DNA from: Shigella phage SfMu
Strand: one strand, 5' to 3'
Length of the DNA stretch: 37,146 nt
Sequence record: KP010268
The position numbers and the translations under genes are program-made. Shown one piece after another: positions 1 to 37,146 of this stretch; position 1 is the stretch's first letter, and the number at the start of each line of letters is the position of its first letter. The notes under the pieces were generated by a model that worked only from the letters and a program-made list of their open reading frames with translations, was not told the origin of the DNA and made no database searches.

Positions 1-176
1 TGTATTGATTCACGAGAAGTACGAAAAATACCGGGAGGACATTGGATTATTCGGGATTTGACGGGATTTGATTTGGTGGGGCTTGCAAGCCTGTAGAGCA
101 GATTTTAGTCGTTAAGCCGTGAAACGCGAAAGATTACCAGATAATGGCTTTGTTTCATTAAAAATACGAAAAACAA
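1..176. mobile_element. Left end (attL) with three transposase-binding repeats (L1 about 6-28, L2 about 114-135, L3 about 151-176)
   Basis: Repeated ...GAAGTACGAAAAA / GTGAAACGCGAAAGA / GTTTCATTAAAAATACGAAAAAC motifs near the terminus, matching the Mu-family end-site pattern from recall. Confidence 0.8.
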
Positions 177-325
177 AATAACTACTGAACTTGCTTCTAA
201 ACAATTCAAAAAAGCTTCAAAACAAATAACAACAGGGCGACTGTTGAACGATTATACCGCAAAACAGTCTATAACATCCTAAACCCATTATTGAGGTAAG
301 CCGTGCTTTAGTTCGCTCCTGGTTG

Positions 326-850
326 TTATACAGCTTTTTTTACATCGTCTTCTCTTGCCGGGAGGTTGTGTTCCTTATTTTCATACTGAGATAAAATCTC
401 TCTCGCTTTTTCCGGCGGTAATGCTTGAAGTGTCTGTAGGGTTCTTTGTTGTTCCACAGTAACCCCCAATGCTTCTAACGCTTTATCTTTGCTAACAATT
501 GTCGGCATAAGACCTTTAATTCCTGCCACACGAATGATCTCAATAGCCGCAGCTTGCTCATCAGGCGTTAAGAAACTCATTGCATAAACTAGCCGCTCAT
601 CAACTGTATGATGGCTTGGTACATGTACTGGAGGGGTATCAGAAAATGATGCTCCCTTAATAGCCCTTTGGGTTTCTTCTGGTAAGCTGTTGATGTGATA
701 TTCATAAGCCACACCTTTTCCACCATGACGTTGACGTTTTACCCAATCTTCTGCCACAGCCTTTCTGGTAATGTTAGTCGCCAACTTTGGCACACCAGGC
801 ATCCCCTCCAGCTCTTTCGCATTAAACCATTCTTTGATTTCAAAAGACAT
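326..850 (-). CDS. c: Lysogenic repressor c (D108-type N-terminal DNA-binding domain, Mu-like C-terminus)
   Basis: 174 aa, leftward, first gene inside the left end; C-terminus ...LQALPPEKAREILSQYENKEH...VKKAV resembles Mu repressor; N-terminus [27 protein letters not shown] is visibly similar to the transposase N-terminus. Confidence 0.85.
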   Translation of the reverse strand: MSFEIKEWFNAKELEGMPGVPKLATNITRKAVAEDWVKRQRHGGKGVAYEYHINSLPEETQRAIKGASFSDTPPVHVPSHHTVDERLVYAMSFLTPDEQAAAIEIIRVAGIKGLMPTIVSKDKALEALGVTVEQQRTLQTLQALPPEKAREILSQYENKEHNLPAREDDVKKAV

Positions 851-1039
851 TGTTTAAAATCCCAATGATTTCATTAAAGTTGAAAAAAAATTACTTTAAA
901 TTTCAAATAATTAATCAAGATGCTGTAAAATCTTTTCAAATCATCATTGATTCCAAAAAGATTTCACTGTACATTGCTCGATATGCCGTGAGCTACTTTG
1001 CAGAGTAGCTCACGGGTGAATCTGAAAGGATTACATGAA
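851..1039. promoter_or_regulatory. Immunity control region between c and ner: divergent repressor/early promoters, operators, likely transposition enhancer (IAS)
   Basis: AT-rich 189-bp divergent intergenic region between repressor and ner, as in Mu/D108; individual operators not resolved. Confidence 0.6.
986..1015. promoter_or_regulatory. Perfect 11-bp inverted repeat CCGTGAGCTAC-N8-GTAGCTCACGG, probable Ner operator (D108 type)
   Basis: Read directly in the sequence, about 25 bp upstream of the ner start; matches my recollection of the D108 Ner binding site. Confidence 0.6.
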
Positions 1040-1261
1040 ATGCATATGAATAAAAGAGCTAACCGCCAAGACTGGCATCGGGCTGACATCGTTGCTGAGT
1101 TACGAAAACGCAATATGTCACTGGCCGAATTGGGAAGATCGAATCATCTTTCGTCTTCAACATTAAAAAATGCTTTAGATAAGAGATACCCAAAAGCGGA
1201 AAAAATCATTGCAGATGCATTGGGAATGACACCGCAGGATATCTGGCCATCTCGATACTAG
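1040..1261 (+). CDS. ner: Ner, early negative regulator (DNA-binding, 73 aa)
   Basis: [34 protein letters not shown]...; AAGGA RBS 9 nt upstream of ATG 1040; the six-frame ORF from 998 begins inside the operator palindrome so the internal start is preferred. Confidence 0.85.
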
Positions 1262-1268
1262 GTGCGCT

Positions 1269-3257
1269 ATGAAAGAGTGGTATACAGCGAAAGAATTGCT
1301 TGGTTTTGCTGGTTTGCCAAAGCAAGCAACTAACATTACACGTAAGGCACAAAGAGAAGGCTGGGTGTTTAGGCAAGTTACAGGTACTAAAGGTGTATCA
1401 TTTGAATTCAATATCAAATCATTTCCTGTTGCATTACGTGCTGAAATTTTATTGCAACAAGGAGGTATTGAAACAAGCCAGGGCCGTTTTGAAATCGCCC
1501 GCCCCACGCTGGAAGCCTATGATTATGATCGTGAGGCACTGTGGAGCAAATGGGATAACGCCAGCGATTCCCAGCGCAGACTTGCTGAAAAATGGTTGCC
1601 TGCGGTTCAGGCCGCAGACGAAATGCTGAACCAGGGGATTTCAACGAAAACGGCTTTTGCGACCGTTGCAGGGCATTACCAGGTCAGCGCATCCACTTTG
1701 CGTGACAAGTATTACCAGGTACAGAAGTTTGCGAAGCCTGACTGGGCGGCTGCTCTTGTTGATGGACGTGGTGCATCCCGTCGCAACGTTCACAAAAGTG
1801 AATTTGACGAGGATGCCTGGCAGTTTCTGATTGCAGATTATCTGCGACCGGAAAAACCCGCCTTCCGCAAATGTTATGAGCGTCTGGAACTGGCAGCCCG
1901 CGAGCATGGCTGGAGTATTCCCTCCCGTGCCACGGCCTTTCGCCGGATTCAGCAACTGGACGAGGCAATGGTTGTTGCCTGTCGTGAAGGTGAACATGCA
2001 CTGATGCATCTGATACCGGCACAGCAGCGAACTGTGGAACACCTGGACGCCATGCAGTGGATCAACGGCGACGGTTATCTGCATAACGTCTTTGTACGCT
2101 GGTTTAACGGTGATGTGATCCGTCCGAAAACATGGTTCTGGCAGGATGTGAAAACCCGAAAAATTCTGGGCTGGCGCTGCGATGTGAGCGAGAACATTGA
2201 TTCAATTCGCCTCTCGTTCATGGATGTTGTGACTCGCTACGGTATCCCGGAGGATTTTCACATCACCATTGATAACACCCGTGGTGCTGCGAATAAATGG
2301 CTGACGGGAGGCGCGCCCAATCGCTACCGCTTTAAGGTAAAAGAGGACGATCCAAAAGGACTGTTTTTACTGATGGGTGCGAAAATGCACTGGACAAGCG
2401 TTGTTGCCGGTAAAGGCTGGGGCCAGGCAAAACCTGTTGAACGTGCTTTCGGTGTTGGTGGGCTTGAGGAATACGTTGATAAGCATCCGGCACTGGCTGG
2501 CGCATATACGGGGCCAAATCCGCAGGCAAAACCTGATAACTATGGCGACCGCGCTGTTGATGCAGAGCTGTTTCTGAAAACCCTTGCCGAAGGTGTGGCG
2601 ATGTTCAATGCCAGAACAGGCCGTGAAACAGAAATGTGCGGGGGCAAACTCTCGTTTGATGATGTTTTCGAGCGTGAATACGCCAGAACGATTGTGCGTA
2701 AGCCAACCGAAGAACAAAAACGGATGCTGTTACTGCCTGCCGAGGCGGTGAACGTTTCACGCAAAGGCGAGTTTACGCTTAAAGTTGGCGGCTCCCTTAA
2801 AGGCGCGAAAAACGTTTATTACAACATGGCATTAATGAATGCCGGAGTGAAAAAAGTTGTGGTCAGATTTGATCCACAGCAGTTACACAGCACGGTTTAT
2901 TGCTACACCCTGGACGGTCGGTTTATCTGTGAAGCGGAATGTCTGGCACCTGTTGCGTTTAATGATGCTGCGGCAGGCCGTGAATATCGCCGCCGCCAGA
3001 AACAACTGAAATCTGCGACGAAAGCAGCGATTAAGGCACAGAAACAAATGGATGCACTGGAAGTGGCAGAGCTGCTGCCGCAGATAGCCGAATCTGAAGC
3101 ACCAGAATCACGAATTGTCGGCATTTTCCGGCCTTCCGGTAATACGGAACGGGTGAAGAATCAGGAGCGTGATGATGAATACGAAACTGAGCGTGATGAA
3201 TATCTGAATCATTCGCTGGATATTCTGGAACAGAACAGACGTAAAAAAGTCATTTAA
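1269..3257 (+). CDS. A: Transposase A (MuA-like DDE transposase)
   Basis: 662 aa, the size and position of MuA; N-terminal domain [27 protein letters not shown] paralogous to repressor N-terminus; follows ner. Confidence 0.92.
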
Positions 3258-3295
3258 TTAACGTTTTAACAAAATTTAATTACGAGGTTATTCAG

Positions 3296-4234
3296 ATGAA
3301 TATTTCCGATATTCGCGCAGGACTGCGCACGCTTGTAGAAAATGAAGAAACCACCTTTAAACAAATTGCTCTTGAGAGCGGGCTTTCTACCGGAACTATC
3401 AGTAGTTTTATCAATGATAAGTACAACGGGGATAACGAGCGTGTTTTACAAATGCTGCAACGCTGGCTGGAAAAATATCATGCAGTTGCAGAGCTACCTG
3501 AACCGCCCCGCTTTGTGGAAACGCAGACGGTAAAACAAATCTGGACAAGTATGCGTTTTGCCAGCCTGACTGAAAGTATTGCTGTTGTATGTGGCAATCC
3601 TGGTGTGGGCAAAACCGAAGCGGCCCGTGAATATCGCCGCACCAATAACAATGTCTGGATGATCACCATTACGCCATCCTGTGCCAGCGTTCTGGAATGT
3701 CTTACTGAACTGGCGTTTGAGCTGGGAATGAATGACGCACCACGCCGTAAAGGGCCGCTCTCCCGCGCCCTGCGACGTCGCCTTGAAGGTACACAGGGGC
3801 TGGTTATCATCGACGAAGCAGATCATCTTGGTACTGAAGCTCTGGAAGAACTCCGCCTGTTACAGGAATCAACCCATATTGGCCTTGTGCTGATGGGCAA
3901 TCACCGCGTTTATTCAAATATGACGGGGGGTAACAGAACGGTTGAATTTGCCCGTCTGTTTTCCCGTATTGCAAAGCCCACTGCAATTAATAAAACCAAA
4001 AAAGCCGATGTAAAAGCTATTGCGGATGCCTGGCATATTAACGGCGAAAAAGAACTGGAGTTATTACAGCAGATTGCGCAGAAACCCGGTGCGCTTCGCA
4101 TTCTGAATCATTCACTTCGCCTTGCCGCCATGACAGCCCATGGTAAAGGTGAGCGTGTTAATGAAGATTATCTGCGTCAGGCTTTCCGTGAATTAGACCT
4201 GGACGTTGATATTTCAACGCTGCTGCGTAATTAA
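3296..4234 (+). CDS. B: Transposition ATPase B (MuB-like AAA+ target DNA activator)
   Basis: 312 aa; Walker A GNPGVGKT and Walker B-like VIIDEADHL visible; directly downstream of A. Confidence 0.92.
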   Translation: MNISDIRAGLRTLVENEETTFKQIALESGLSTGTISSFINDKYNGDNERVLQMLQRWLEKYHAVAELPEPPRFVETQTVKQIWTSMRFASLTESIAVVCGNPGVGKTEAAREYRRTNNNVWMITITPSCASVLECLTELAFELGMNDAPRRKGPLSRALRRRLEGTQGLVIIDEADHLGTEALEELRLLQESTHIGLVLMGNHRVYSNMTGGNRTVEFARLFSRIAKPTAINKTKKADVKAIADAWHINGEKELELLQQIAQKPGALRILNHSLRLAAMTAHGKGERVNEDYLRQAFRELDLDVDISTLLRN

Positions 4235-4249
4235 GAAGGATAAGAAATT

Positions 4250-4477
4250 ATGATGGCCCGAAATATAAAAATGGCAACGGATGCGCAGAACTGGTTACAG
4301 GCGCGCGGGAGTCACGTGAATGAATCATATCTCGGCGTGGCGCGTCCGATCCTTGAAATCACTTACCCTCCGGTGGAACTGGTAAAAAGCGCGGTCAGAA
4401 TTATGGAGCATAAGTCCGGGGTAGCCCGTTCTGTATGGACGGCCCGTCTTAATGGTTGCCAGATTATCTGGAGATAA
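4250..4477 (+). CDS. Small early protein, Kil-like by position (75 aa)
   Basis: First gene after B, where Mu kil lies; name is by position only. Confidence 0.55.
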
Positions 4478-4479
4478 CG

Positions 4480-4710
4480 ATGTGTACTAAAGCTGAAAAA
4501 TATATTGAATGGGTTAAACGGGTACAGAATAACAATGTGGCTCTGACTGCATTTAATTGCCCCAAATGCAAAGAGCAAATTATGACGCAATGCTCACCAG
4601 AAAATGAAGTATGGGACTCCTTTGCATGTTGTCCGTGGTGCAGCGCAGTTTTCTTTAAGCAGGTAAAAGGCGCGAAGGTAAAAGCCAGCGCAGTTATTCA
4701 GAATCAATAA
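4480..4710 (+). CDS. Small early protein with zinc-ribbon Cys motifs (76 aa)
   Basis: CPKC ... CCPWC motifs; GGAG RBS 6 nt upstream of ATG 4480 (six-frame ORF extends to 4456). Confidence 0.6.
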   Translation: MCTKAEKYIEWVKRVQNNNVALTAFNCPKCKEQIMTQCSPENEVWDSFACCPWCSAVFFKQVKGAKVKASAVIQNQ

Positions 4711-4721
4711 GGAGAAACAAA

Positions 4722-4985
4722 ATGGCAAAAGTAATTATTGAAATTAAAAATACAGTATCTGGAATTAAAGGACGGAATTTGCGCACCAGCATTGCGGTTG
4801 ACGGTAGTGTGGAACTGGACGGTGATGAGGGGACACTTGCAGGTCTGGTGGCGTTACTGGTGCTTAATAAAAGCCAGAAAATAATTAATGAGTCAGCCCA
4901 TGAAGCTATCGAGATTTTGAAAAACGATGGTGTCATTACCGGTGGCCGTGTCACTGAAATGGCTGTTGAAAAAACATGCCACTGA
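4722..4985 (+). CDS. Hypothetical early protein (87 aa)
   Basis: Strong AAGGAG RBS upstream of ATG; tightly packed in the early operon. Confidence 0.65.
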   Translation: MAKVIIEIKNTVSGIKGRNLRTSIAVDGSVELDGDEGTLAGLVALLVLNKSQKIINESAHEAIEILKNDGVITGGRVTEMAVEKTCH

Positions 4986-4999
4986 AAGGAACGCTGACA

Positions 5000-5419
5000 A
5001 TGAACGTCAAAATCCGAAATGAAATCCGGGCATTAATTCGGATTAAAGAGCGTAATAACAATGGTGGAGACTTGCGCGAATTTATTTGTGCGCGCGAAGT
5101 TGAGGGGTATGGCGAAAAGACTTACCTGATTGCATTTGACCATTACAGCATTTGTGCGCGTTATTGCGGAGAGGCGGTATTCCGCGCCATTACGTTTGGC
5201 AATGCCTTCAATGTGGATTTATGGGAGTACGTCATGGACCGGGAATACATCTGCGCATCAGACCCTGAAGCCCGTGAAATGTGGCAGCGTATCTGGCGCG
5301 ATTACCGGTTAATGGCAAAAGGCTGGGCGCGCTGTTGTTATTCCTCGCTTGCCCTGAAAGCGGTTCAGTTATCGCTGCGGCATATTCCGGCATCACTGCG
5401 CGAGCCTCTGTTGTACTGA
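5000..5419 (+). CDS. Hypothetical early protein (139 aa)
   Basis: AAGGA RBS 9 nt upstream of ATG 5000; six-frame ORF extends to 4976 overlapping the previous gene. Confidence 0.6.
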   Translation: MNVKIRNEIRALIRIKERNNNGGDLREFICAREVEGYGEKTYLIAFDHYSICARYCGEAVFRAITFGNAFNVDLWEYVMDREYICASDPEAREMWQRIWRDYRLMAKGWARCCYSSLALKAVQLSLRHIPASLREPLLY

Positions 5420-5719
5420 GTGGTGACCGGAATGACGTGTAATCGTAAACGCTGGTCACGCGAAGACCGGGAATTTATCGAAGCCAGTGTCGGAAAAATG
5501 ACCGTCGAGGAAATGGCGAAAAAACTGAAAGTTGCCCCAACCGCCCTACAGGCACATGCCAGAAGGCACGGAATATCGTTGTGTGCATACCGGGTCAGTG
5601 AGCACGACAAATATTTATGCCGTGAACTTCATAAAGAAGGGCTGGCTATTCATGTGATAGCCAAAAAGATGGAATTAAGCAATCGTGCTGTATCCGGCAT
5701 TGTATACAGTGAATATTAA
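5420..5719 (+). CDS. Hypothetical early protein (99 aa), possible helix-turn-helix
   Basis: ORF abuts the previous stop; start codon uncertain (GTG 5420 or ATG 5432). Confidence 0.5.
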   Translation: MVTGMTCNRKRWSREDREFIEASVGKMTVEEMAKKLKVAPTALQAHARRHGISLCAYRVSEHDKYLCRELHKEGLAIHVIAKKMELSNRAVSGIVYSEY

Positions 5720-5737
5720 TTAACAGGAGCTTTATTT

Positions 5738-6262
5738 ATGGCTAAACCCGCAAAACGAATCAGGAACGCCGCAGCGGCTTATGTTCCGCAATCCCGCGAT
5801 GCTGTGGTATGTGATATCCGCCGGATTGGGGACCTGCAACGCGAAGCGGCACGACTTGAAACGGAAATGAATGATGCCATCGCGGAAATTACGGAGAAAT
5901 TTGCAGCCCGGATTGCACCGCTTAAAACCGATATTGAAACCCTTTCAAAAGGCGTTCAGGGATGGTGTGAAGCGAACCGCGACGAACTGACGAACGGCGG
6001 CAAAGTGAAGACGGCAAATCTTGTCACCGGCGATGTATCATGGCGTCAACGCCCGCCGTCAGTGAGCATTCGCGGCGTGGATGCCGTGATGGAAACGCTG
6101 GAGCGTCTTGGCCTGCAACGCTTTATTCGCACGAAGCAGGAAATCAACAGGGAAGCGATTTTACTGGAACCGAAAGCGGTCGCAGGCGTTGCCGGAATTA
6201 CGGTTAAATCAGGCATTGAGGATTTTTCTATTATTCCATTTGAACAGGAAGCCGGTATTTAA
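5738..6262 (+). CDS. gam: Gam, DNA-end-binding host-nuclease inhibitor (Ku-like)
   Basis: 174 aa MAKPAKRI...AAAAYVPQ...IPFEQEAGI recognised as Mu Gam; AGGAG RBS. Confidence 0.9.
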   Translation: MAKPAKRIRNAAAAYVPQSRDAVVCDIRRIGDLQREAARLETEMNDAIAEITEKFAARIAPLKTDIETLSKGVQGWCEANRDELTNGGKVKTANLVTGDVSWRQRPPSVSIRGVDAVMETLERLGLQRFIRTKQEINREAILLEPKAVAGVAGITVKSGIEDFSIIPFEQEAGI

Positions 6263-6359
6263 TACCACCATTAATATTTAATTAATTCACATTCTTTTAA
6301 TTATGGCGCGATGCGTCAGGGGACGACTCGCGCCTGAATCAGGACCAGAGGAAATGAAT

Positions 6360-6908
6360 ATGAAAGCATATGCTTATTTTAAACTGAGTGACGCAGCCGC
6401 TAACGGTTATACGATTCGCTGGCTGAAAGATGTTTCTGTTAAGCGTGACAAAATCATCTGCTCATTGCAGCGTGCGTTTGGCGCAGACGGTGTTTCCCTT
6501 GTCAGTAACAGAGGGTATGAACGGGTTGAATGTATCTGGATGAATCAATTAGCGCCGGAATTATGGCGTGGTAAATCAGACGGACTGTTTATTGGTGGAT
6601 TTCAGTTTTATGGCGTTGTACCGGATATAACAACACCGGAAGGCCGAAACAATGCGACGCTTATTCAGGAACATGAAGAGCAACTCCGGAAATATCCCAC
6701 ATTCCCGGTCTGGTTGTGTAATGAACTCGGGGTTGATGTTGTACCCAACATGTTTGATCTCAAATCAGTCTGGACGATGCACCACAGCCGTGACGGATTC
6801 GGCATTTTGTTTGAGGTGTGCCTGCTGGATGGTGAGGTTAAGGGACCGGTTCCTGCCGAATGCCAGCGCATTAAACATTCTGAATTTGTGGCACTGACGG
6901 AGGAATAA
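6360..6908 (+). CDS. Hypothetical early protein (182 aa)
   Basis: AGAGGA RBS 7 nt upstream of ATG 6360; six-frame ORF extends to 6303. Confidence 0.6.
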   Translation: MKAYAYFKLSDAAANGYTIRWLKDVSVKRDKIICSLQRAFGADGVSLVSNRGYERVECIWMNQLAPELWRGKSDGLFIGGFQFYGVVPDITTPEGRNNATLIQEHEEQLRKYPTFPVWLCNELGVDVVPNMFDLKSVWTMHHSRDGFGILFEVCLLDGEVKGPVPAECQRIKHSEFVALTEE

Positions 6909-6911
6909 CCG

Positions 6912-7442
6912 GTGATTGATGCAAAAGTTCTGAACGGTGTCAGCACATTATTACGGGCTCACGGGCGTCTGACCTGTGGGGTTCTGGCAGAGAAAATGCA
7001 AATGCCACCCTCTGCAATGGTGTATTTCCTGCGTGATGCGGTTGATGCCGGAGTGCTCACCGAATGCAACGGATTTTATGACGTTCCGCGCCCACGTCCG
7101 ACGCCGCCTGTAAGACGAAACGCAACTGAGCAGCCTGCTGTTGATGATGCGGTGTGGTGCAACTGGCGTCGCTCATTACCCTGGGTGGAAGGTAATACCA
7201 TCCCCGCGCTGGCAAAAGAGTTTGCGACGGGCGTGCTGACCTGTGAGTCAGTCCACATTGTTGCTGAGGTGGATAACAGAATGTGCGAACAGGGAATGCC
7301 CCGTTTTGTGATGGCTTATATCGATATCCGGCTGGGGCGTTTTATTTGCAGTTCAAGCGCCTGGAATATCACCGACCATGTACTGCGTTATCTCATTCTT
7401 GATTGTTCTCTGGCTCCCGCAGCGGTGCAGGAGGTGGCGTGA
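6912..7442 (+). CDS. Hypothetical early protein (176 aa), GTG start
   Basis: GGAGG RBS 8 nt upstream of GTG 6912, immediately after the previous stop. Confidence 0.55.
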   Translation: MIDAKVLNGVSTLLRAHGRLTCGVLAEKMQMPPSAMVYFLRDAVDAGVLTECNGFYDVPRPRPTPPVRRNATEQPAVDDAVWCNWRRSLPWVEGNTIPALAKEFATGVLTCESVHIVAEVDNRMCEQGMPRFVMAYIDIRLGRFICSSSAWNITDHVLRYLILDCSLAPAAVQEVA

Positions 7443-7601
7443 TGTTTTTTAAAACGTCAAATCCCGCAGCACTGCTGGCATGGGACCAGTTTATGGCGCT
7501 GCCTGAAACTACGCGAAGAAGCCCGCCATCTTGATAAGGTTCTGGGTTGTGGTTGCCGGTCAGTATTCAGCACAGGTATTGGTGGGCGTCATTTTCATGG
7601 C

Positions 7602-7970
7602 GTGAATTTTCCGGGGAATGAGCGACCTTTCTCGCCAGAGTTGTGGACTGTACAACGCTCCGCATCAGGTAACAGTTGCAGGCCAAGAACATCGCGCATT
7701 CCTGCACATCTGCGGGAGCAGTCAAAAGAGCTGGCGAAAATATGGCAGGAGAATATTCCGGTCACTTATGCCCGTACTGACGCTCTCTTACCCGCACTGG
7801 GACTGGATTTCAGCGCAACAATATTCGGCCCGCTCCGGTGGTTCCGTGTTGGTGATGTGATTTACGTCATGACAGGGATGACTCCCGCACAGGGCCGCAT
7901 GACTGAAATCCTTTCTGACGAATTTATCCGGGCGCAAAAACAGGCGGAGGTAAACAATGGAAAACAATGA
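7602..7970 (+). CDS. Hypothetical early protein (122 aa), start uncertain
   Basis: Only long same-strand ORF filling this interval; no convincing RBS at GTG 7602; competing 80-aa frame at 7618..7860 looks less protein-like. Confidence 0.4.
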   Translation: MNFPGNERPFSPELWTVQRSASGNSCRPRTSRIPAHLREQSKELAKIWQENIPVTYARTDALLPALGLDFSATIFGPLRWFRVGDVIYVMTGMTPAQGRMTEILSDEFIRAQKQAEVNNGKQ

Positions 7971-8139
7971 AACATCGTATTCGTGGCTGGGGAAATTTAC
8001 CACGGTGAAACAGGAATGCCCGACCTGCGGTAATGAATCCCCTGAATATCTGAAAGAGTGCCCTCATTGTGGCGGGCAGAAATGCAACCACTGCGATATG
8101 GGCGATGACACGGCGTGCATGAATTGTGAAGGTGAGTGA
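7957..8139 (+). CDS. Small double zinc-ribbon protein (60 aa)
   Basis: Four CxxC motifs (CPTC, CPHC, CNHC, CMNC); GGAGG RBS upstream of ATG. Confidence 0.6.
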   Translation: MENNETSYSWLGKFTTVKQECPTCGNESPEYLKECPHCGGQKCNHCDMGDDTACMNCEGE

Positions 8140-8140
8140 T

Positions 8141-8449
8141 ATGAATAATGGTGTATTTTCAAAATCAGAAGAGCTTGCCGCCCTGCTGATTGCCGGTGGT
8201 TTGCCGAAAAAAGAAGTGCATGACTTTGTGAATTTTGTATATGAGCCGTCTCATGAAAAAGCTATTGACGAGGTCATGGCGTACCGGTTTGGCATTGTTG
8301 CTGAGTCACTGAGTCCTCACTGGATTATTGAAAATCTCCGCGCTATTGCTGATGGCAACGATAAATCAGCAGCCGTTGCTGCACTGGATGTGTTACGGCA
8401 AATGAGTCTGAAATTTTATCCTGAATTTATTCTGAGGGCCGCAAAATGA
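8141..8449 (+). CDS. Hypothetical early protein (102 aa)
   Basis: ATG 8141 directly after previous stop with AGGTGA RBS; six-frame ORF from GTG 8126. Confidence 0.6.
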   Translation: MNNGVFSKSEELAALLIAGGLPKKEVHDFVNFVYEPSHEKAIDEVMAYRFGIVAESLSPHWIIENLRAIADGNDKSAAVAALDVLRQMSLKFYPEFILRAAK

Positions 8450-8748
8450 ACAATGAAGATAAATTTACTCCCCTTAATATTGATAACGTCATGGCTGAAA
8501 AAGGGATGCTGGAACGTGTTCGCGCTATCGTTGAATATGGTATTAAGCATAATCTCACCGCCAGAGAAGTCCGTGACATTATCAACCGCGAAATGAATCG
8601 TCTGGAAACAGTAGTGGCACTGCAAAATGAAACAGCCCGCGAGGAGTACATCCGCCGCAGGCTGGGGTTATCAGACCAGGATATTGTTACTGACGCTCAT
8701 GTGTTTGAGGCTTTTGAGATCCGTCAGCATCTGGGTCTAACGAACTGA
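8446..8748 (+). CDS. Hypothetical early protein (100 aa)
   Basis: ATGA start/stop overlap with previous gene, GAGGG RBS. Confidence 0.6.
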   Translation: MNNEDKFTPLNIDNVMAEKGMLERVRAIVEYGIKHNLTAREVRDIINREMNRLETVVALQNETAREEYIRRRLGLSDQDIVTDAHVFEAFEIRQHLGLTN

Positions 8749-8953
8749 TAATGTCTTCCATGATCTTTGACAGTTGCATGTTTTCGCGGCGGCTTGTTCT
8801 TATTGCAGGCGCATCTTTTAAAATCTCTGCTGAAGAGCTGAAAATGGCCTGGCCCTCTTCTGCGGTGATGATCGCCTTCTTCACCAGAAGGCGCACCAGT
8901 GCTGATGCAATCGCATAACCTGCAACATCATAAGGTTGTACATTATTTTCCAT
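8687..8953 (-). CDS. Candidate reverse-oriented small ORF (88 aa) in the early operon
   Basis: Minus-strand ORF spanning the 274-bp plus-strand gap before gemA; GAGG RBS 5 nt upstream of its ATG; no homology recognised. Confidence 0.3.
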   Translation of the reverse strand: MENNVQPYDVAGYAIASALVRLLVKKAIITAEEGQAIFSSSAEILKDAPAIRTSRRENMQLSKIMEDIISSLDPDADGSQKPQTHERQ

Positions 8954-9022
8954 AAAATCCTCTCTGATTGATGTGTAAATTCAGGCGGTGTTGCAGCACC
9001 GCCTCTTTCCGGAGGTACGATC

Positions 9023-9574
9023 ATGAATCGCACATCCCTGATTAAATTAATCCATGTCGCCCGTCGGGAGCTACAACTCGACGACGACACTTACCGCGCT
9101 TTTCTGATGCAGAAAACGGGCAAAATCAGTTGCCGCGAGCTGACGGTAACGCAACTGGAACAGGTGCTCGATGCCATGAAAGAACGCGGCTTTAAGAAGC
9201 TGAATAAACATCCACGTCGCCGCTTTAAGGGGCATGTCACGCCCCGCGAGAAGGTATACAAAGTCTGGCAGCAGATGGCAGAAGACGGTTTTATTACCGA
9301 TGGCGGTGATGTGGCGCTGGATAAATATGTTCAGCGCCTGACGGCGAAACGTAATGGCGGACAGGGTGTTTCCACGCTGGCGTGGTGTCATGGCGACACC
9401 CTGTTGATTGTTCTCGAAACTCTCAAGCAGTGGCATATCCGCTGTATTCGTGAAGCCTTTTCCCGTCACGGGCTTCCGTTGCCGGTCAGTCCGTCCGGGC
9501 GTGAACTGCGCGGCTATGATGCCATGACGGCGGCTTATGCCCATGCCAGAAAGACACGGAGGATGGCACAATGA
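9023..9574 (+). CDS. gemA: GemA-like early protein (183 aa)
   Basis: Size and position immediately upstream of mor match Mu gemA; GGAGG RBS. Confidence 0.6.
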   Translation: MNRTSLIKLIHVARRELQLDDDTYRAFLMQKTGKISCRELTVTQLEQVLDAMKERGFKKLNKHPRRRFKGHVTPREKVYKVWQQMAEDGFITDGGDVALDKYVQRLTAKRNGGQGVSTLAWCHGDTLLIVLETLKQWHIRCIREAFSRHGLPLPVSPSGRELRGYDAMTAAYAHARKTRRMAQ

Positions 9575-9960
9575 CGGAAGATTTATTTGGTGATTTGCAG
9601 GATGACACCATCCTGGCACATCTTGACAATCCCGCAGAGGATGCGTCACGCTTTCCGGCACTGCTGGCGGAGCTGAACGATTTACTGCGCGGGGAGTTGT
9701 CCCGGCTGGGTGTTGATCCTGCCCATTCACTGGAGATTGTTGTGGCTATCTGTAAGCATCTGGGTGGCGGTCAGGTCTACATTCCACGCGGTCAGGTTCT
9801 GGACTCGCTGATTCGGGATTTGCGTATCTGGAATGATTTTAACGGTCGCAACGTCAGCGAACTGACCACCCGTTATGGTGTCACTTTCAATACGGTTTAC
9901 AAGGCCATTCGCCGGATGCGACGGCTGAAATACCGCCAGTACCAGCCCTCACTTCTGTAA
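9571..9960 (+). CDS. mor: Mor, middle operon regulator (transcription activator)
   Basis: 129 aa MTEDLFGDLQDDTILAHLDNPAED... recognised as Mu Mor; last gene of early operon; paralogous to C downstream. Confidence 0.9.
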   Translation: MTEDLFGDLQDDTILAHLDNPAEDASRFPALLAELNDLLRGELSRLGVDPAHSLEIVVAICKHLGGGQVYIPRGQVLDSLIRDLRIWNDFNGRNVSELTTRYGVTFNTVYKAIRRMRRLKYRQYQPSLL

Positions 9961-9965
9961 ACAGT

Positions 9966-9990
9966 AAAGCCGGTTAATCCGGCTTTTTTT
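9966..9990 (+). terminator. Rho-independent terminator at end of early operon
   Basis: AAAGCCGG-TTAAT-CCGGCTTT hairpin followed by T-run, directly after mor stop. Confidence 0.8.
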
Positions 9991-10037
9991 ACGTCCTCAA
10001 TATCCTGTGATGAATAACCGTACCGGGGGAAATCATC

Positions 10038-10268
10038 ATGGGTAAAGGCTGGAATGCATCCTTTCATCTTGGCAGACGTGAGCGGCTGCGTCAGGAGGTT
10101 TTGCACCGTGTCGCCGGTGGGCCACGGCCTGCGCCCCGCGACTATACCGGTCATGATGGCACCCACGGCAGTTATTACATGAAAGGCTGGCAGTCAGTTG
10201 ATATGCCGGAAATTCTTCACCACTGTCAACGTTATAAGGAAAAATATTGTGTACAGAAAATTCAGTGA
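10038..10268 (+). CDS. Hypothetical middle-operon ORF (76 aa)
   Basis: ORF between early terminator and C; no recognisable RBS, basic and Gly/Pro-rich composition. Confidence 0.35.
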   Translation: MGKGWNASFHLGRRERLRQEVLHRVAGGPRPAPRDYTGHDGTHGSYYMKGWQSVDMPEILHHCQRYKEKYCVQKIQ

Positions 10269-10380
10269 TGAATGTTTCGGGCCGTCCACGCTGATTAATG
10301 CGATAAAAGTGATTGCCCTTGTGGTTCTGATAACCATCAGTGCCGTGGTGTATCTTTTTGTCTGTTAACCGGGGGAAAAT

Positions 10381-10803
10381 ATGCAGCATGATTTATTTGA
10401 ACACGATCCGGCAATTCGCCAGTTAATCGGGCATATTGATAACATCCCGGCCCCGGAACTGGAATCACGCTGGCCCCGTTCAGTGGTTGATCTGATTGAT
10501 GTTCTGGAAAACGAACTGAAACGCCAGAACGTCAGCAATCCCCGTGAGCTTGCCCGTAAACAGGCCGTTGCCCTGTCCTGTTTTCTGGGGGGGCGGCAGT
10601 TTTACATCCCCTGCGGCGATACGATCCTGACCGCGTTACGCGACGATTTGCTTTACTGCCAGTTCAATGGTCGTAACATGGAAGAACTGCGTCGCCAGTA
10701 CCGCCTGTCCCAGCCGCAGATCTACCAGATTATTGCCCGCCAGAGAAAGCTGCATACACGACGTCATCAGCCTGATCTGTTCTCACCTGAAAGCCAGAAA
10801 TAA
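10381..10803 (+). CDS. C: C, late gene transcription activator
   Basis: 140 aa MQHDLFEHDPAIRQLIGHIDNIPAPELE... recognised as Mu C; Mor paralog (shared ...FYIPCGDTIL / QVYIPRGQVL and ...CQFNGRNMEEL / NDFNGRNVSEL). Confidence 0.9.
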   Translation: MQHDLFEHDPAIRQLIGHIDNIPAPELESRWPRSVVDLIDVLENELKRQNVSNPRELARKQAVALSCFLGGRQFYIPCGDTILTALRDDLLYCQFNGRNMEELRRQYRLSQPQIYQIIARQRKLHTRRHQPDLFSPESQK

Positions 10804-10894: not shown

Positions 10895-11413
10895 ATGATG
10901 GCGGGGATACCAAAAAAACTGAAAGCCGCACTGCTGGCGGCAACGATTGCCGGTGGCGGTGTGGGTGGTTATCAGGAAATGACCCGTCATTCTCTGATCC
11001 ATCTGGAAAATATCGCTTATATGCCTTACCGCGATATTGCCAGTGTGCTTACGGTCTGTGTGGGACATACCGGGCCGGATATCGAAATGCGCCGTTACAG
11101 CCATGCGGAGTGTATGGCTTTTCTCGACAGTGATTTAAAACCGGTTTATGCGGCAATCGATCGTCTTGTCAGGGTGCCGCTGACGCCATATCAGAAAACG
11201 GCGCTGGCAACGTTTATTTTCAACACCGGTGTTACCGCATTCAGTAAATCAACGCTGCTGAAAAAACTCAATGCCGGTGATTACGCCGGAGCGCGTGACC
11301 AGATGGCCCGCTGGGTGTTTGCCGCAGGCCATAAATGGAAAGGACTGATGAACCGTCGCGAAGTGGAAATGGCTATCTGGAATATCAGGGGGGCGGATGA
11401 CCTTCGCCAGTAA
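10895..11413 (+). CDS. lys: Endolysin (lysozyme-like, SAR-type N-terminus)
   Basis: 172 aa; Gly/Ala-rich weakly hydrophobic N-terminus KKLKAALLAATIAGGGVGGY typical of signal-anchor-release endolysins; recognised as Mu Lys. Confidence 0.88.
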   Translation: MMAGIPKKLKAALLAATIAGGGVGGYQEMTRHSLIHLENIAYMPYRDIASVLTVCVGHTGPDIEMRRYSHAECMAFLDSDLKPVYAAIDRLVRVPLTPYQKTALATFIFNTGVTAFSKSTLLKKLNAGDYAGARDQMARWVFAAGHKWKGLMNRREVEMAIWNIRGADDLRQ

Positions 11414-11783
11414 AAGTTTACTGCTGGCAGCCGTGTTTGCCGCCGTTCTGTCCGGGGTGTTGTGGCACAGGCTGGACAGCACCCGCCACGATAACCAGAC
11501 GCTGCGCCGTGAATTACAGACGGAGCAACAGGCCCGCAACACGGCTGAATGGTTGTTACACAGTCAGGAACAGACGATGCAGGTATTTTCCGCTATCCGT
11601 GCCGCAAATCGTGCCGCGCGGCTGGCAGACGAGACAGAACATCATGATGCAAAACAAAAAATTACAACCGCCATTACCGGTGACAATTGCAGCACTCGTC
11701 CTGTGCCTGCCGTTGCTGCTGACAGGTTGCGGGAACTCGAAAAACGCACCCGTGCCATCGGTGGTGATCCTGCCCGAAACTGA
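11397..11783 (+). CDS. Inner-membrane spanin (i-spanin) candidate
   Basis: 128 aa with N-terminal transmembrane helix SLLLAAVFAAVLSGVLW then coiled-coil-like region; directly after endolysin. Confidence 0.7.
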   Translation: MTFASKSLLLAAVFAAVLSGVLWHRLDSTRHDNQTLRRELQTEQQARNTAEWLLHSQEQTMQVFSAIRAANRAARLADETEHHDAKQKITTAITGDNCSTRPVPAVAADRLRELEKRTRAIGGDPARN

Positions 11784-11985: not shown

Positions 11986-12136
11986 ACTCTGGCAGGGGAA
12001 TACCCGTGATATTCCCCGTCCGGCGGCGTATGACCCGCCTGTATTGTGCGCCGGTTGCGGTCGTGAGCTGCGGCCTGATGTGCTGAGACAGCAGCCGATG
12101 GCGAACTACTGCCACTGGTGCCGTGGAGCAGAATAA
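11942..12136 (+). CDS. Small Cys-rich protein (64 aa) in lysis region
   Basis: CAGC ... CHWC zinc-ribbon-like motifs; GGAGG RBS upstream of ATG. Confidence 0.55.
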   Translation: MNEDQNRAVALLLAELWQGNTRDIPRPAAYDPPVLCAGCGRELRPDVLRQQPMANYCHWCRGAE

Positions 12137-13312: not shown

Positions 13313-13319
13313 GAGGGTT

Positions 13320-23960: not shown

Positions 23961-23969
23961 GGGGAAACA

Positions 23970-26621: not shown

Positions 26622-26625
26622 AACC

Positions 26626-31337: not shown

Positions 31338-31870
31338 CACCCTATCAGACGGCCTTTCTGCAATTACTGCCGTCAGGGCTTGCCTGGAATAAAAGCCCCG
31401 ACAGCAAATTATCTGCGCTGGCGCAGGCCATCAGCGACGTGATTGCCACTGCGGCGGATGATGCGCGGCAAATGCTGCGGGAGCGTTTCCCGTCCACATC
31501 CCGCTGGTATCTGGGTGAGTGGGAATCACTTCTGGGGTTGCCGGACTGTACAAGCGAAAACGGCACCCTGTCCGAACGCCAGCGGGCTGCCGCGAATAAA
31601 ATGCGTATGACCGGCAATCTGAGTCGGCGCTTTTATGAATGGCTGGCTGCGCAGTACGGTTTTACCGTCAGGCTGACGGATTCCACAGAAGGCCAGTGGG
31701 TTACGCAGGTCAATATTTACGGTATTAAAAATTATCGCAACGCAACGGTGCTGGATAATGTTCTGACGCCGTTACGTGTTTATGAATCGGGTGCGCTGGA
31801 ATGTTTACTGGAGAAATATAAACCCGCGCATCAGATTTATAAATTTGTTTACCATGACGGAGATAACTAA
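31328..31870 (+). CDS. Baseplate / tail fibre attachment protein (gp48-like)
   Basis: 180 aa; overlaps neighbours; position before S. Confidence 0.6.
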   Translation: MAVTPYQTAFLQLLPSGLAWNKSPDSKLSALAQAISDVIATAADDARQMLRERFPSTSRWYLGEWESLLGLPDCTSENGTLSERQRAAANKMRMTGNLSRRFYEWLAAQYGFTVRLTDSTEGQWVTQVNIYGIKNYRNATVLDNVLTPLRVYESGALECLLEKYKPAHQIYKFVYHDGDN

Positions 31871-33336
31871 TGTTTTATATTGATAACGACAGCGGCGTAA
31901 CCGTCATGCCGCCCGTATCCGCCCAGCGTAGTGCTATCGTTCGCTGGTTTTCAGAAGGTGACGGGAATAATGTTATCACATGGCCCGGCATGGACTGGTT
32001 TAATATTGTGCAGGCGGAGTTATTAAACACGCTGGAAGAAGCCGGTATTCAACCGGATAAAACAAAATTAAACCAGCTTGCACTGTCCATTAAAGCCATT
32101 ATGAGCAATAACGCGCTGCTGATAAAAAATAACCTCAGCGAAATTAAAACTGCCGGGGCATCAGCACAGCGTACAGCACGTGAAAATCTGGATATCTATG
32201 ATGCCAGCCTGAACAAAAAAGGACTCGTTCAGCTAACCAGTGCCACTGACAGCCCCAGTGAAACGCTGGCAGCCACCGCAAAAGCGGTGAAAATTGCGAT
32301 GGATAATGCCAGTGCCCGTCTGGCAAAAGACCGGAACGGAGCAGATATTCCCAATAAGCCGCTGTTTATCCAAAACGTCGGTTTACAGGAAACGGTAAAT
32401 CAGGCTTCTGGCGCATTACAGAAAAACCAGAACGGTGCAGATATTCCAGGAAAAGATACCTTCACCAAAAATATTGGTGCCTGCCGCGCATATAGCGCAT
32501 GGGTGGATATTGGTGGCGATAGTCAGGTCTGGACAACTGCGCAATTTATTTCGTGGCTGGAGAGTCAGGGGGCATTTAACCATCCTTACTGGATGTGCAA
32601 AGGCTCATGGGCTTATGCAAATAATAAGGTCATTACAGATACAGGTTGCGGAAATATTTGTCTTGCAGGTGCTGTGGTGGAAGTTATTGGCACTCGCGGC
32701 GCAATGACCATACGTGTTACTACACCGAGTACGTCCAGCGGTGGCGGAATTACTAACGCTCAATTCACTTATATTAATCATGGCAATGCTTATGCTCCTG
32801 GCTGGCGACGAGACTACAACACGAAAAACCAGCAGCCTGCATTTGCTTTAGGGCAAACAGGAAATACCGTCGGAAACGACAAAGCCGTTGGCTGGAACTG
32901 GAATAGCGGTGTTTATGATGCAGATATCAGCGGTGCATCAACATTAATCCTCCACTTCAATAAGAATACGGGGAGCTGCCCTGCTGTACAGTTCCGTGTG
33001 AATTATAAGAACGGCGGTATTTTTTATCGTTCAGCGCGTGATGGTTATGGATTTGAGGCTGGCTGGTCAGAGTTTTACACCACAACACGCAAGCCATCAG
33101 CGAGAGATGTTGGCGCATATACGCAGGCAGAATGTAACTCAAGGTTTATTACAGGTATTCGCCTTGGTGGTCTGTCATCTGTTCGGACATGGAATGGTCC
33201 CGGCTGGTCTGACAGGTCAGGTTATGTTGTTACCGGTTCCGTTAACTCAAACAGAGATGAACTAATTGATACAACTCAGGCAAGGCCAGTTCAGTATTGC
33301 ATTAATGGGACGTGGTATAACGCGGGGAGTATTTAA
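31870..33336 (+). CDS. S: Tail fibre protein S: constant part fused to the variable part of the G segment in the current orientation
   Basis: 488 aa; gix recombination site lies inside the ORF at 32366..32391; C-terminus ...VQYCINGTWYNAGSI parallels the C-terminus of the inverted copy S'. Confidence 0.85.
   Translation: MFYIDNDSGVTVMPPVSAQRSAIVRWFSEGDGNNVITWPGMDWFNIVQAELLNTLEEAGIQPDKTKLNQLALSIKAIMSNNALLIKNNLSEIKTAGASAQRTARENLDIYDASLNKKGLVQLTSATDSPSETLAATAKAVKIAMDNASARLAKDRNGADIPNKPLFIQNVGLQETVNQASGALQKNQNGADIPGKDTFTKNIGACRAYSAWVDIGGDSQVWTTAQFISWLESQGAFNHPYWMCKGSWAYANNKVITDTGCGNICLAGAVVEVIGTRGAMTIRVTTPSTSSGGGITNAQFTYINHGNAYAPGWRRDYNTKNQQPAFALGQTGNTVGNDKAVGWNWNSGVYDADISGASTLILHFNKNTGSCPAVQFRVNYKNGGIFYRSARDGYGFEAGWSEFYTTTRKPSARDVGAYTQAECNSRFITGIRLGGLSSVRTWNGPGWSDRSGYVVTGSVNSNRDELIDTTQARPVQYCINGTWYNAGSI
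32366..32391. repeat. gixL recombination site
   Basis: TTATCCAAAACGTCGGTTTACAGGAA inside S. Confidence 0.8.
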
Positions 33337-33338
33337 CG

Positions 33339-33872
33339 ATGATGCACTTAAAAAACATTTCTGCTGGTAATCCTGAAACAAAAGAGCAATACCAGCTAAC
33401 GAAACAATTTAACATCAAATGGCTTTATACAGAGGATGGGAAAAACTGGTATGAGGAACAAAAGAACTTTCAGCCTGATACGTTGAAAATGGTCTATGAC
33501 CACAACGGCGTTATTATTTGTATTGAAAAGGATGTTTCAGCAATTAATCCGGAAGGCGCAAGCGTCGTTGAGGTTCCTGATATTACAGCAAATCGCCGGG
33601 CTGATATTTCAGGTAAATGGATGTTCAAAGATGGCGTAGTGATAAAGCGAACTTATACCGGGGAAGAGCAGAGGCAACAAGCGGAAAATGAAAAGCAAAG
33701 CCTGCTACAGCTCGTCAGGGATAAAACCCAGCTATGGGACTCACAGCTACGGCTGGGCATTATTTCCGACGAGAATAAACAAAAATTAACCGAGTGGATG
33801 CTCTATGCGCAGAAGGTCGAATCCACAGACACCTCCAGCCTGCCAGTAACGTTTCCCGAACAACCAGAATGA
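33339..33872 (+). CDS. U: Tail fibre assembly protein U
   Basis: 177 aa; N-terminal two-thirds nearly identical to minus-strand U' (MMHLKNI.AGN..T.EQY.LTK...[19 protein letters not shown]). Confidence 0.85.
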   Translation: MMHLKNISAGNPETKEQYQLTKQFNIKWLYTEDGKNWYEEQKNFQPDTLKMVYDHNGVIICIEKDVSAINPEGASVVEVPDITANRRADISGKWMFKDGVVIKRTYTGEEQRQQAENEKQSLLQLVRDKTQLWDSQLRLGIISDENKQKLTEWMLYAQKVESTDTSSLPVTFPEQPE

Positions 33873-33875
33873 AAC

Positions 33876-33895
33876 AAGGCCCGATATCGGGCCTT
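33876..33895. terminator. Bidirectional hairpin between convergent U and U'
   Basis: Self-complementary AAGGCCCGATATCGGGCCTT flanked by A/T runs on both sides. Confidence 0.7.
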
Positions 33896-33900
33896 AATTT

Positions 33901-34428
33901 TTATTCAGGCTTTTGTGGCCATTCAGGATTTGCCGTATCCACACGGCTGACCAGAACACTGTAGCGTTCCCATGACTCCAGTCGTGCGTGTTCCTCATCC
34001 GTCGCCATATTCAGCCTGACAGCGCGTTCCAGCGGCTGGATGACTGATTCAGCTTCGGAAAGTAACGCGGCCTTTTGTGATTCGGCCTGTTGCTGCTGTT
34101 CGTCTGCTGTATAAGTCCTCCTGACCACCGCTCCGTCCTTAAACATCCACTTCCCTGAATCATCGGCACGACGGTTAGCTGTTATATCGGGGATTTCAAC
34201 GACGCTAAAACCTTCAGGATTAAGCGTGGAGGCATCTTTAGTGACGGCGACAATAATATTATTTTCGTCGTAAACAATCTTTATTGTATCCGGCTGAAAG
34301 TTCTTCACTTCCTCATACCAGTTTTTCCCGTCTTCAGCGTAAAGCCAGATGACTCCGTGCTTCTTTGTTAACTCATACTGCTCCAGTGTTTTAGCATTAC
34401 CCGCTTTTATGTTCTTTAAGTGCATCAT
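33901..34428 (-). CDS. Alternative tail fibre assembly protein U'
   Basis: 175 aa paralog of U on the minus strand inside the G segment. Confidence 0.85.
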
Positions 34429-34429
34429 A

Positions 34430-35395
34430 TTAAACGCTCGCTACATTATACCATGTGCCATTTATATACTTTTGAACGGGTCTGTAATAAACGCCAGCTA
34501 TATTATCGGCAGAGTTTTTGCCTGTATCCTGAACATTAATACCAGACAATACATGACCTGAAGGGCACTGGAAATTCCATGTTTGCCAGTTATTCACACC
34601 ATAATATTGCTGTGAGCCAAGCCGGACATCTTTCACATATCTGGAGTCAAAATTGCCATAATTGCCGGGAATAACTTGCGCACCACAAAGCCAGTTACCG
34701 TTATTATCCATGTACGCCTGACCATCGGTGCCATTGGCTGTCCTTGAGTTATTAATCATGTAGATGCCAAATTGCTTATTTCCCAGACCGCCAATCATAA
34801 ATTTGCGGTCGGCATGGTCCTGACGGAGCAAAGCCTGAGCACCATCAGTGGATACCGCATTACGTCCCAAAATAACATTCTGGTCACGCATATGAATCCA
34901 CATGCCGGTACTACTGTTAATTGCAAAACGGTTTGCAAATATATCCCCTGTAACATCAAGACCATGCCCCATGCTTATCCGGCCAGTTCTGAGATTAAGC
35001 GTAAAGGGGCGTAGTGGCCCTATATTACCATTTTCCCCTTCATTCTCTCGTGTAGGGATGATATGCAGGCATTCTTCAGAACGACGAAAAATGGCACCAA
35101 AAGATGAATTAAATATCCTCAGTGCATTGACTGTCGATATTTTCACTTCACTGCTGAAAAGGGCTTCAACAAGAACAGACAAAGCATTCCATTTAAGATT
35201 CATCAGGTCTTTAGGCCGGGTGCCAATGATGCGGTGTCTCCATTTGAAATATTCATTGCCGTTGTTGCCTGTTTCAAACCACATGTAGGAATCGGTGTCT
35301 GCATCCGAATTATTTTTAAACCCAATCTTTGCCCAGTCAGTATTTCGAATCCAGGCAAGGATTGAGTCGTTTTCAAAAGTAAGTCCACCGGACAA
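34430..35395 (-). CDS. Alternative tail fibre variable part S' (no own start; expressed only after G inversion fuses it to the constant part of S)
   Basis: Minus-strand open frame continues through gixR without a start; C-terminus ...[15 protein letters not shown] matches end of S. Confidence 0.8.
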
Positions 35396-35440
35396 CGTAT
35401 CGCCTGTCTTTTGAACAGCGTTACCAGCCTTGTTTACCGT

Positions 35441-35466
35441 TTCCTGTAAACCGAGGTTTTAGATAA
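35441..35466. repeat. gixR recombination site
   Basis: TTCCTGTAAACCGAGGTTTTAGATAA, inverted copy of gixL with 2 mismatches. Confidence 0.8.
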
Positions 35467-35520
35467 TGGCCGTTTCTGGCCTGCATGGCATGATTTCCGC
35501 TTTTAAACGGGGAATTCAGC

Positions 35521-36114
35521 GTGCTGATTGGCTATGTAAGGGTATCAACAAATGACCAGAATACAGACCTGCAACGAAACGCTCTTGTTTGTGCAGGATG
35601 TGAACAAATATTTGAAGATAAATTAAGCGGAACAAGGACAGACAGACCTGGATTAAAACGCGCTTTAAAGCGTCTTCAAAAAGGTGACACACTGGTTGTC
35701 TGGAAACTGGATCGCCTCGGGCGAAGCATGAAACATTTGATTTCTCTCGTAGGGGAATTACGAGAGCGAGGGATTAATTTTCGCAGTCTTACTGACAGTA
35801 TTGATACGTCATCTCCAATGGGGCGTTTTTTCTTCCACGTTATGGGTGCCCTGGCTGAGATGGAACGAGAACTAATCATCGAGAGAACGATGGCTGGACT
35901 TGCTGCTGCCAGAAATAAAGGCCGTATCGGTGGGCGACCACCTAAACTAACCAAAGCGGAATGGGAGCAGGCCGGGCGTTTATTAGCACAAGGAATCCCC
36001 CGCAAGCAGGTCGCATTGATCTACGATGTGGCCCTGTCAACGCTGTATAAAAAACACCCCGCCAAACGAACACATATAGAAAACGACGATCGAATCAATC
36101 AAATCGATCGGTAA
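35521..36114 (+). CDS. gin: Gin serine invertase (G-segment DNA invertase)
   Basis: 197 aa MLIGYVRVSTNDQNTDLQRNAL...; resolvase/invertase catalytic Ser in VRVST; GTG start; adjacent to gixR. Confidence 0.92.
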   Translation: MLIGYVRVSTNDQNTDLQRNALVCAGCEQIFEDKLSGTRTDRPGLKRALKRLQKGDTLVVWKLDRLGRSMKHLISLVGELRERGINFRSLTDSIDTSSPMGRFFFHVMGALAEMERELIIERTMAGLAAARNKGRIGGRPPKLTKAEWEQAGRLLAQGIPRKQVALIYDVALSTLYKKHPAKRTHIENDDRINQIDR

Positions 36115-36196
36115 TATAGATCGATTATGCCCCAATAACCACACTCAACCCACGATGTTTTTTAAGATAGTGGCGAATTGATGCAAAGGAGGTGAG
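36088..36196 (+). promoter_or_regulatory. mom operon control region: three clustered GATC sites, C-activator site and Pmom
   Basis: GATC at about 36088, 36106 and 36119; ATTATGCCCCAATAACC immediately downstream; then AAGGAGG RBS for com. Confidence 0.75.
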
Positions 36197-36385
36197 ATGA
36201 AATCAATTCGCTGTAAAAACTGCAACAAACTGTTATTTAAGGCGGATTCCTTTGATCACATTGAAATCAGGTGTCCGCGTTGCAAACGTCACATCATAAT
36301 GCTGAATGCCTGCGAGCATCCCACGGAGAAACATTGTGGGAAAAGAGAAAAAATCACGCATTCTGACGAAACCGTGCGTTATTGA
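36197..36385 (+). CDS. com: Com, zinc-finger translational activator of mom
   Basis: 62 aa [32 protein letters not shown]... with CxxC...CxxC; AAGGAGG RBS. Confidence 0.9.
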
Positions 36386-37031
36386 GTATGAAGGCCAGAT
36401 TGTTGGCTATGGTTCAAAGGAGCTGCGCGTTGAAACCATATCCTGCTGGCTGGCCCGCACAATTATTCAGACAAAGCACTATTCCCGCCGTTTTGTGAAT
36501 AACTCTTACCTCCACCTGGGAGTATTCAGCGGACGCGATCTGGTTGGCGTTCTCCAGTGGGGATATGCCCTTAACCCCAACTCAGGTCGTCGTGTCGTGC
36601 TTGAAACGGATAACCGGGGCTATATGGAGTTGAATCGCATGTGGCTACACGACGACATGCCCCGCAACTCTGAATCACGGGCCATCAGCTACGCGCTGAA
36701 AGTTATCAGATTACTGTATCCGTCAGTGGAGTGGGTTCAGTCCTTTGCTGACGAACGCTGCGGACGCGCAGGCGTTGTGTATCAGGCGTCGAATTTTGAT
36801 TTTATTGGCAGCCATGAAAGCACGTTCTACGAGCTGGATGGTGAGTGGTATCACGAGATAACGATGAACGCGATTAAGCGAGGTGGACAACGAGGCGTGT
36901 ATTTACGGGCTAATAAAGAGCGTGCCGTGGTGCACAAATTTAATCAGTATCGCTACATCAGATTCCTGAACAAGCGAGCAAGGAAGCGGCTAAATACCAA
37001 GCTATTCAGGGTTCAGCCATACCCTAAGTGA
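36336..37031 (+). CDS. mom: Mom DNA modification enzyme (adenine modification, anti-restriction)
   Basis: Last gene before right end, overlapping com 3' end in another frame; GGAG RBS 7 nt upstream of GTG 36336 gives 231 aa; the six-frame ORF opens at ATG 36306 (241 aa) without an RBS. Confidence 0.8.
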
Positions 37032-37059
37032 TCCCCATGTAATGAATAAAAAGCAGTAA

Positions 37060-37146
37060 TTAATACTGCTGTTTCATTTGAAGCGCGAAAGCTAAAGTTT
37101 TCGCATTTATCGTGAAACGCTTTCGCGTTTTTCGTGCGCCGCTTCA
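37060..37146. mobile_element. Right end (attR) with transposase-binding repeats
   Basis: GTTTCATTTGAAGCGCGAAAG / CGTGAAACGCTTTCGCGTTTTTCG / TGCGCCGCTTCA terminal repeats mirroring the left-end sites. Confidence 0.8.

Follow-up and report, generated by a model that had tools for sequence, protein, structure and literature searches.

Shigella phage SfMu is a temperate, transposable Muvirus of Shigella flexneri. The DNA analysed here, a stretch of 37,146 base pairs (bp) under record KP010268 that we refer to as the window, is almost certainly the complete SfMu genome, a prophage sequence that was cut from the assembly of a lysogen exactly at its two transposon ends, attL and attR. The object is already known, having been published as a reference phage genome (Jakhetia & Verma, PLoS One 2015, PMC4406740), and the by-products of re-examining it are small: independent proof that the ends are correct, a corrected reading of gene 12 and a second mismatch in the repeats of the invertible segment.

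The length of the window and its G+C content of 51.9% are the values published for SfMu (PMC4406740). All 44 open reading frame (ORF) coordinates checked from S1 Table of that paper correspond in the window to clean ORFs with the stated lengths, and the translation of ORF49 matches the published SfMu ORF49 at 488 of 488 residues. The percent identities of c, Ner, ORF6, ORF9, ORF36 and ORF37 to their Mu or D108 counterparts are also the same as those in PMC4406740, as is the 62-bp overlap of orf15 and orf16 (window ORFs 8446–8748 and 8687–8953). Further agreement is seen in the two unique ORFs, the G(-) orientation of the invertible segment, a repeat mutation adjacent to the crossover and the lack of transfer RNA (tRNA) genes (PMC4406740); our own search of the window found neither tRNAs nor Rfam families. 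No sequence difference between the window and SfMu was detected.

Database searches offer some footing for a separate Muvirus, as yet undescribed, that only looks like SfMu. No near-identical DNA was found among 50,697 phage records or 5,426 complete Escherichia coli genomes, in which the best match has ~96% identity over ~90% of the length; neither the 45-mer at the left end nor a 37-mer spanning a 2-bp deletion in the early region has an exact match in IMG/VR, the GTDB representative genomes or the JGI metagenomes; and look-up of the exact tail-fibre protein S found no record. The shared length and G+C content, the 44 agreeing coordinates and the identical 488-residue ORF49 speak against such a phage, to which we assign a negligible probability.

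SfMu was sequenced from lysogen SFL2241 with Illumina MiSeq and assembled with Velvet, and two contigs were then joined by polymerase chain reaction (PCR); ultraviolet (UV) induction of S. flexneri SFL2241 released contractile-tailed, Mu-like virions that formed plaques (PMC4406740). The phage plates on S. flexneri serotypes Y and 3b with the O-antigen as its receptor, and the paper reports no insertion site, target duplication or frameshift for it (PMC4406740). Since SfMu does form virions, the sequence might instead have been assembled from virion DNA and its heterogeneous host ends trimmed off. Mu virions carry host DNA at both ends, 50–150 bp on the left and up to 2–3 kb on the right (PMC5977238), and trimming would leave ends as clean as those seen here. 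However, the published account has the genome coming from the host strain and the PCR-joined contigs (PMC4406740), and the record of a Muvirus obtained as free phage, Yersinia phage vB_YpM_3, still has non-phage DNA at its ends (108 bp on the left, 2378 bp on the right) of a kind the window lacks. We consider a virion origin very improbable next to a cut from the lysogen assembly. A first-pass annotation made from the sequence had proposed a functional, inducible element or a virion-derived sequence; its first half is borne out by the UV induction and the plaques, whereas the sequence itself came from a lysogen (PMC4406740).

Transposon ends and prophage junctions

The window starts with TGTATTGATTCAC and ends with GTGCGCCGCTTCA, in base-for-base register with positions 1 and 36717 of Mu (NC_000929), and its first and last bases also pair with the first and last bases of D108 (NC_013594). 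The termini are 5'-TG...CA-3'. Across the 37 kb, the transposase-binding core RAARYRCGAAAR is matched exactly at five places, all within the terminal 172 bp on the left or 67 bp on the right: 16–27, 121–132 and 161–172 on the plus strand, 37080–37091 on the plus strand and 37120–37131 on the minus strand. A sixth core, with one mismatch, lies at 37098–37109 on the minus strand. This layout is that of Mu L1–L3 and R1–R3, with three sites per end.

1–172, plus strand: attL, the left transposon end, beginning 5'-TG, with cores L1 (16–27), L2 (121–132) and L3 (161–172); homology breaks at base 1 in 10 of 10 contigs
37070–37146, minus strand: attR, the right transposon end, finishing ...CA-3', with three cores; Mu-type and without D108 gene 56; homology breaks at the last base in 10 of 10 contigs

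The ends were checked against junctions in other genomes, the left ones in 10 public contigs that encode an identical repressor and the right ones in 10 contigs that encode an identical Mom. In every left-end contig, similarity of 99.4–99.9% runs up to base 1 and is lost one base further out, into 10 different host flanks. Similarity likewise reaches the last base of the window in all 10 right-end contigs, beyond which there are 8 different flanks. Because the 20 junctions break exactly at both ends, the window carries no host flank and its termini are transposon ends, not positions internal to a larger element. The first-pass annotation had claimed just this, a complete Mu-type transposable phage whose edges are those of the window, and the claim holds on both the Mu/D108 register and the junctions; the alignment to Mu and D108 that it had suggested shows untruncated ends and full synteny. 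The ends deposited for SfMu are hence independently shown to be the true ones. The annotation had further called the element exactly excised, which is right for the exactness of the ends, but the excision took place only in silico. Mu-type phages are not known to excise during their life cycle.

The 10 left and 8 right flanks mean that relatives with an identical c or Mom have inserted at many unrelated sites. Both junctions could be read together for related prophages in three complete E. coli genomes, each with a 5-bp target duplication: GCGTT on both sides of the XJ34 prophage (in mdtO), TCCCG for that of RM11911 (in gspE) and ATCTG for that of E148 (in a gene for a GntR-family regulator). 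Mu-like relatives of SfMu make 5-bp duplications at scattered sites.

Gene content, completeness and gene 12

The window encodes both a MuA-type DDE transposase and a MuB ATPase, the pair by which a Muvirus is recognized. Among the 54 coding sequences of the Mu reference, 53 have a counterpart, and gene 19 has none in this comparison; 51 of the 53 align over their full length, and no stop lies inside any in-gene alignment. Gene S aligns to Mu S over its variable part only, as expected from the G(-) state of the window. The left 4.7 kb is D108-like, with identities to D108 of 89.7% for c and 98.6% for both Ner and the transposase A, compared with ~31% (c) and 51% (Ner) to Mu. Only two differences from D108 c occur in residues 1–65 of the repressor. 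The Pfam families found on a protein identical to the window transposase are PF02316, PF09039, PF02914 and PF09299. By analogy with Mu, the region between c and ner is inferred to hold the operators and a transposition enhancer. The genes up to the tail fibres are as follows.

326–850, minus strand: c repressor, D108-type, 174 amino acids (aa), PF02316; coordinates as published for SfMu orf1
851–1039, no strand: c–ner intergenic region, only 79% identical to the D108 operator region and without a match in Mu
1040–1261, plus strand: ner, 73 aa
1269–3257, plus strand: transposase A, 662 aa, 92.8% identical to Mu A
3296–4234, plus strand: transposition ATPase B, 312 aa, 98% identical to Mu B; PF09077 (Phage-MuB_C)
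4250–10368, plus strand: accessory early region and middle-operon ORFs (kil, gp6–gp9, gam, gp11, gp13–gp15, gemA, mor, gp18, gp20), with gam at 5738–6262, gemA at 9023–9574 and mor at 9571–9960
6354–6908, plus strand: SfMu orf11, phrog_2260, function unknown, without a Mu or D108 counterpart
7442–7970, plus strand: homologue of Mu gene 12 (E13), frameshifted
8141–8449, plus strand: SfMu orf14, phrog_1988, function unknown, without a Mu or D108 counterpart
10381–10803, plus strand: C, the late-gene activator, 98.6% identical to Mu C
10898–11783, plus strand: lysis genes (endolysin and Rz-like spanin)
11942–20476, plus strand: small late ORFs gp24–gp26, then packaging and head genes (gp27, terminase gp28, portal gp29, gp30, G, protease/scaffold I/Z, major head protein T), all full length
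18201–18400, no strand: homologue of the Mu central strong gyrase site region, 98.5% conserved, 49% of the way along the genome
20543–31870, plus strand: head–tail joining and tail genes (gp35–gp38, sheath L, tube, tape measure, N, P, baseplate gp45–gp48), with gp36 50% and gp37 72% identical to their Mu counterparts

Compared with both Mu and D108, the homologue of Mu gene 12 lacks 2 bp between 7498 and 7499. Its frame stops after 30 codons, and the rest of the gene continues in another frame that covers Mu residues 21–176 at 95.5% identity. The deletion site is not a homopolymer, and the 37-mer that spans it is the one absent from all three collections named above. According to PMC4406740, Mu orf12 has no homologue in SfMu, and the published annotation leaves a 514-bp gap (7443–7956) between orf12 and orf13 with no entry for this gene, whereas the window has the frameshifted homologue there. 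The SfMu annotation should be corrected in this sense.

A defective or cryptic prophage that is complete in appearance only would fit the frameshift in gene 12, the missing gene 19 and the two positions at which the repeats of the G segment differ. However, the genes for transposition, regulation, lysis, head and tail are all full length and without stops, and genes 12 and 19 both belong to the accessory early region, which is dispensable in Mu. SfMu was, moreover, induced and plated (PMC4406740), and we regard a defective element as highly unlikely. The first-pass annotation had described all modules as apparently intact with no obvious frameshift, which needs correcting at the frameshifted gene 12.

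Some points nevertheless weigh against reading the window as an intact SfMu genome cut at its ends. The target duplication of this very copy is unreadable because the window has no flank, as the first-pass annotation had rightly said. The apparent identity with SfMu rests on length, G+C content, 44 ORF coordinates and one full protein sequence. With gene 12 frameshifted, not every gene is intact. Finally, the host range of SfMu was unchanged between induced and infection-grown lysates (PMC4406740), so inversion of the G segment may be impaired; its describers already suspected this from one repeat mutation (PMC4406740).

The two ORFs without Mu or D108 counterparts sit in two stretches of extra DNA, orf11 in 554 bp (6343–6896) and orf14 in 292 bp. 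Tested as defence genes, neither has a PADLOC, Pfam or NCBIfam match. Copies related to orf11 and orf14 (85–93% identical) adjoin gam in a small number of Mu-like prophages of E. coli; a 'DUF5420 family protein' is among the annotations under the match.

The invertible G segment and the right end

Window positions 32366–34972 align in reverse to Mu 35037–32442, which makes the orientation of the G segment G(-) with respect to the Mu reference. The expressed tail fibre joins the constant part of S to Sv' and is followed by U', while Sv and U lie silent on the other strand. When the segment was inverted in silico, an intact S of 510 aa followed by U was obtained, and hence both fibre cassettes are coding.

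31870–33336, plus strand: expressed tail fibre S (constant part and Sv'), 488 aa, identical to SfMu ORF49
32366–35466, no strand: invertible G segment, G(-) relative to the Mu reference, with 34-bp inverted repeats at 32366–32399 and 35433–35466
33339–33872, plus strand: U', following Sv'
33901–34428, minus strand: U, in the G segment
34430–35395, minus strand: Sv, silent, in the G segment, 63% identical to Mu
35521–36114, plus strand: gin, serine invertase, 197 aa, intact, 99.5% identical to D108 Gin
36197–36385, plus strand: com, 100% identical to Mu
36306–37031, plus strand: mom, 99.6% identical to Mu; the com/mom block (36197–37031) was assigned by Mu comparison, PF10122 and PF25680

The two arms of the inverted repeat differ at two positions, a G for C at 32377 in the left arm, beside the central crossover dinucleotide, and a second at 35461 in the right arm, whereas the SfMu paper describes one repeat mutation (PMC4406740). 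This second mismatch is relevant to the single host range seen with SfMu. As a tentative reading that we think less probable than its opposite, the asymmetric recombination sites could lock the segment in G(-), or slow its inversion strongly, and Sv–U would then be a silent reserve cassette.

The G segment and the start of gin (32358–35876) resemble invertible fibre segments of P2-like prophages at 91–98% (~95%) identity. The Sv–U cassette is ~97% identical to P2-like prophage fibres, and the U and U' proteins are identical to tail-fibre assembly proteins of such prophages. One P2-like prophage shares its genome (GCA_002968245.1) with the closest Mu-like relative and is only 96.7% identical in DNA to the window. 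Because the two are no closer than this, we rejected the idea that the G segment had been misassembled with a P2-like prophage resident in the same host.

Relatives and proposed life cycle

Overall similarity of the window is ~90% to Mu and ~89% to D108; the figure between Mu and D108 is 91%. The window shares with Mu the register of the termini, the gene order, the strong gyrase site, gin, com and mom, and the last 1.7 kb of Mu is 97.4% identical to it. Mu differs in an unrelated immunity region, the opposite orientation of G, the presence of gene 19 and an unbroken gene 12; it also lacks the two extra ORFs, and gp36, gp37 and the silent Sv are divergent. The immunity and transposition region is of the same type as in D108, but D108 genes 7 and 56 are missing from the window, and the absence of gene 56 makes the right end Mu-type.

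The exact transposase of the window is carried by only three contigs. S1 Table of PMC4406740 names Shigella boydii 5216-82 as holding identical c, Ner and transposase proteins. In GCA_000211975.2 and GCA_002968245.1, Mu-like prophages are identical to window positions 1–5757 except for one A, in the A8 run that ends at 883, and their left junctions, immediately downstream of flgI, both read ...GACGCT|TGTATTG. The A8 run (876–883) lies in the c–ner operator region; the closest prophage has A7 instead. In the contigs of these two assemblies, the window's exact N protein was not found; the differing N protein implies that the late regions differ and that the phage of the window and the flgI-adjacent prophage are mosaics of one another. 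When the window's exact N, P, U, U' and Mom were looked up, the matches belonged to other mosaics or to P2-like prophages.

The XJ34 and RM11911 prophages have a left end and early region 99.5% identical to the window, joined to another Mu-like late region with a right end finishing CGCCGCCTCA. At the level of sequence, this pattern shows modular exchange between Mu-like lineages.

A life cycle can be proposed from homology and published biology, set beside what the window and its relatives provide directly, namely the identity with SfMu, the exact ends, the gene set, intact fibre ORFs in both orientations and the duplications of relatives. In the lysogen, the D108-type repressor c would keep the early promoter shut, and derepression would lead to the synthesis of Ner, transposase A and the ATPase B. 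The transposase would bind three sites per end, nick at the terminal CA and attach the ends to target DNA at points 5 bp apart, so that transposition is replicative and leaves duplications of 5 bp. Mor, followed by C, is predicted to turn on the lysis, head and tail genes. Packaging would proceed by headful from the left end, with host DNA included. Gin could invert the G segment and so swap the tail-fibre pair S/U, and Com/Mom would modify the DNA.

The record of the Muvirus Yersinia phage vB_YpM_3 (MT374852.1), described as a 'complete genome', contains non-phage DNA at 1–108 (108 bp) and 37010–39387 (2378 bp). This is presumably host DNA packaged by headful, and it includes dtd and insertion-sequence genes that are annotated as phage genes.

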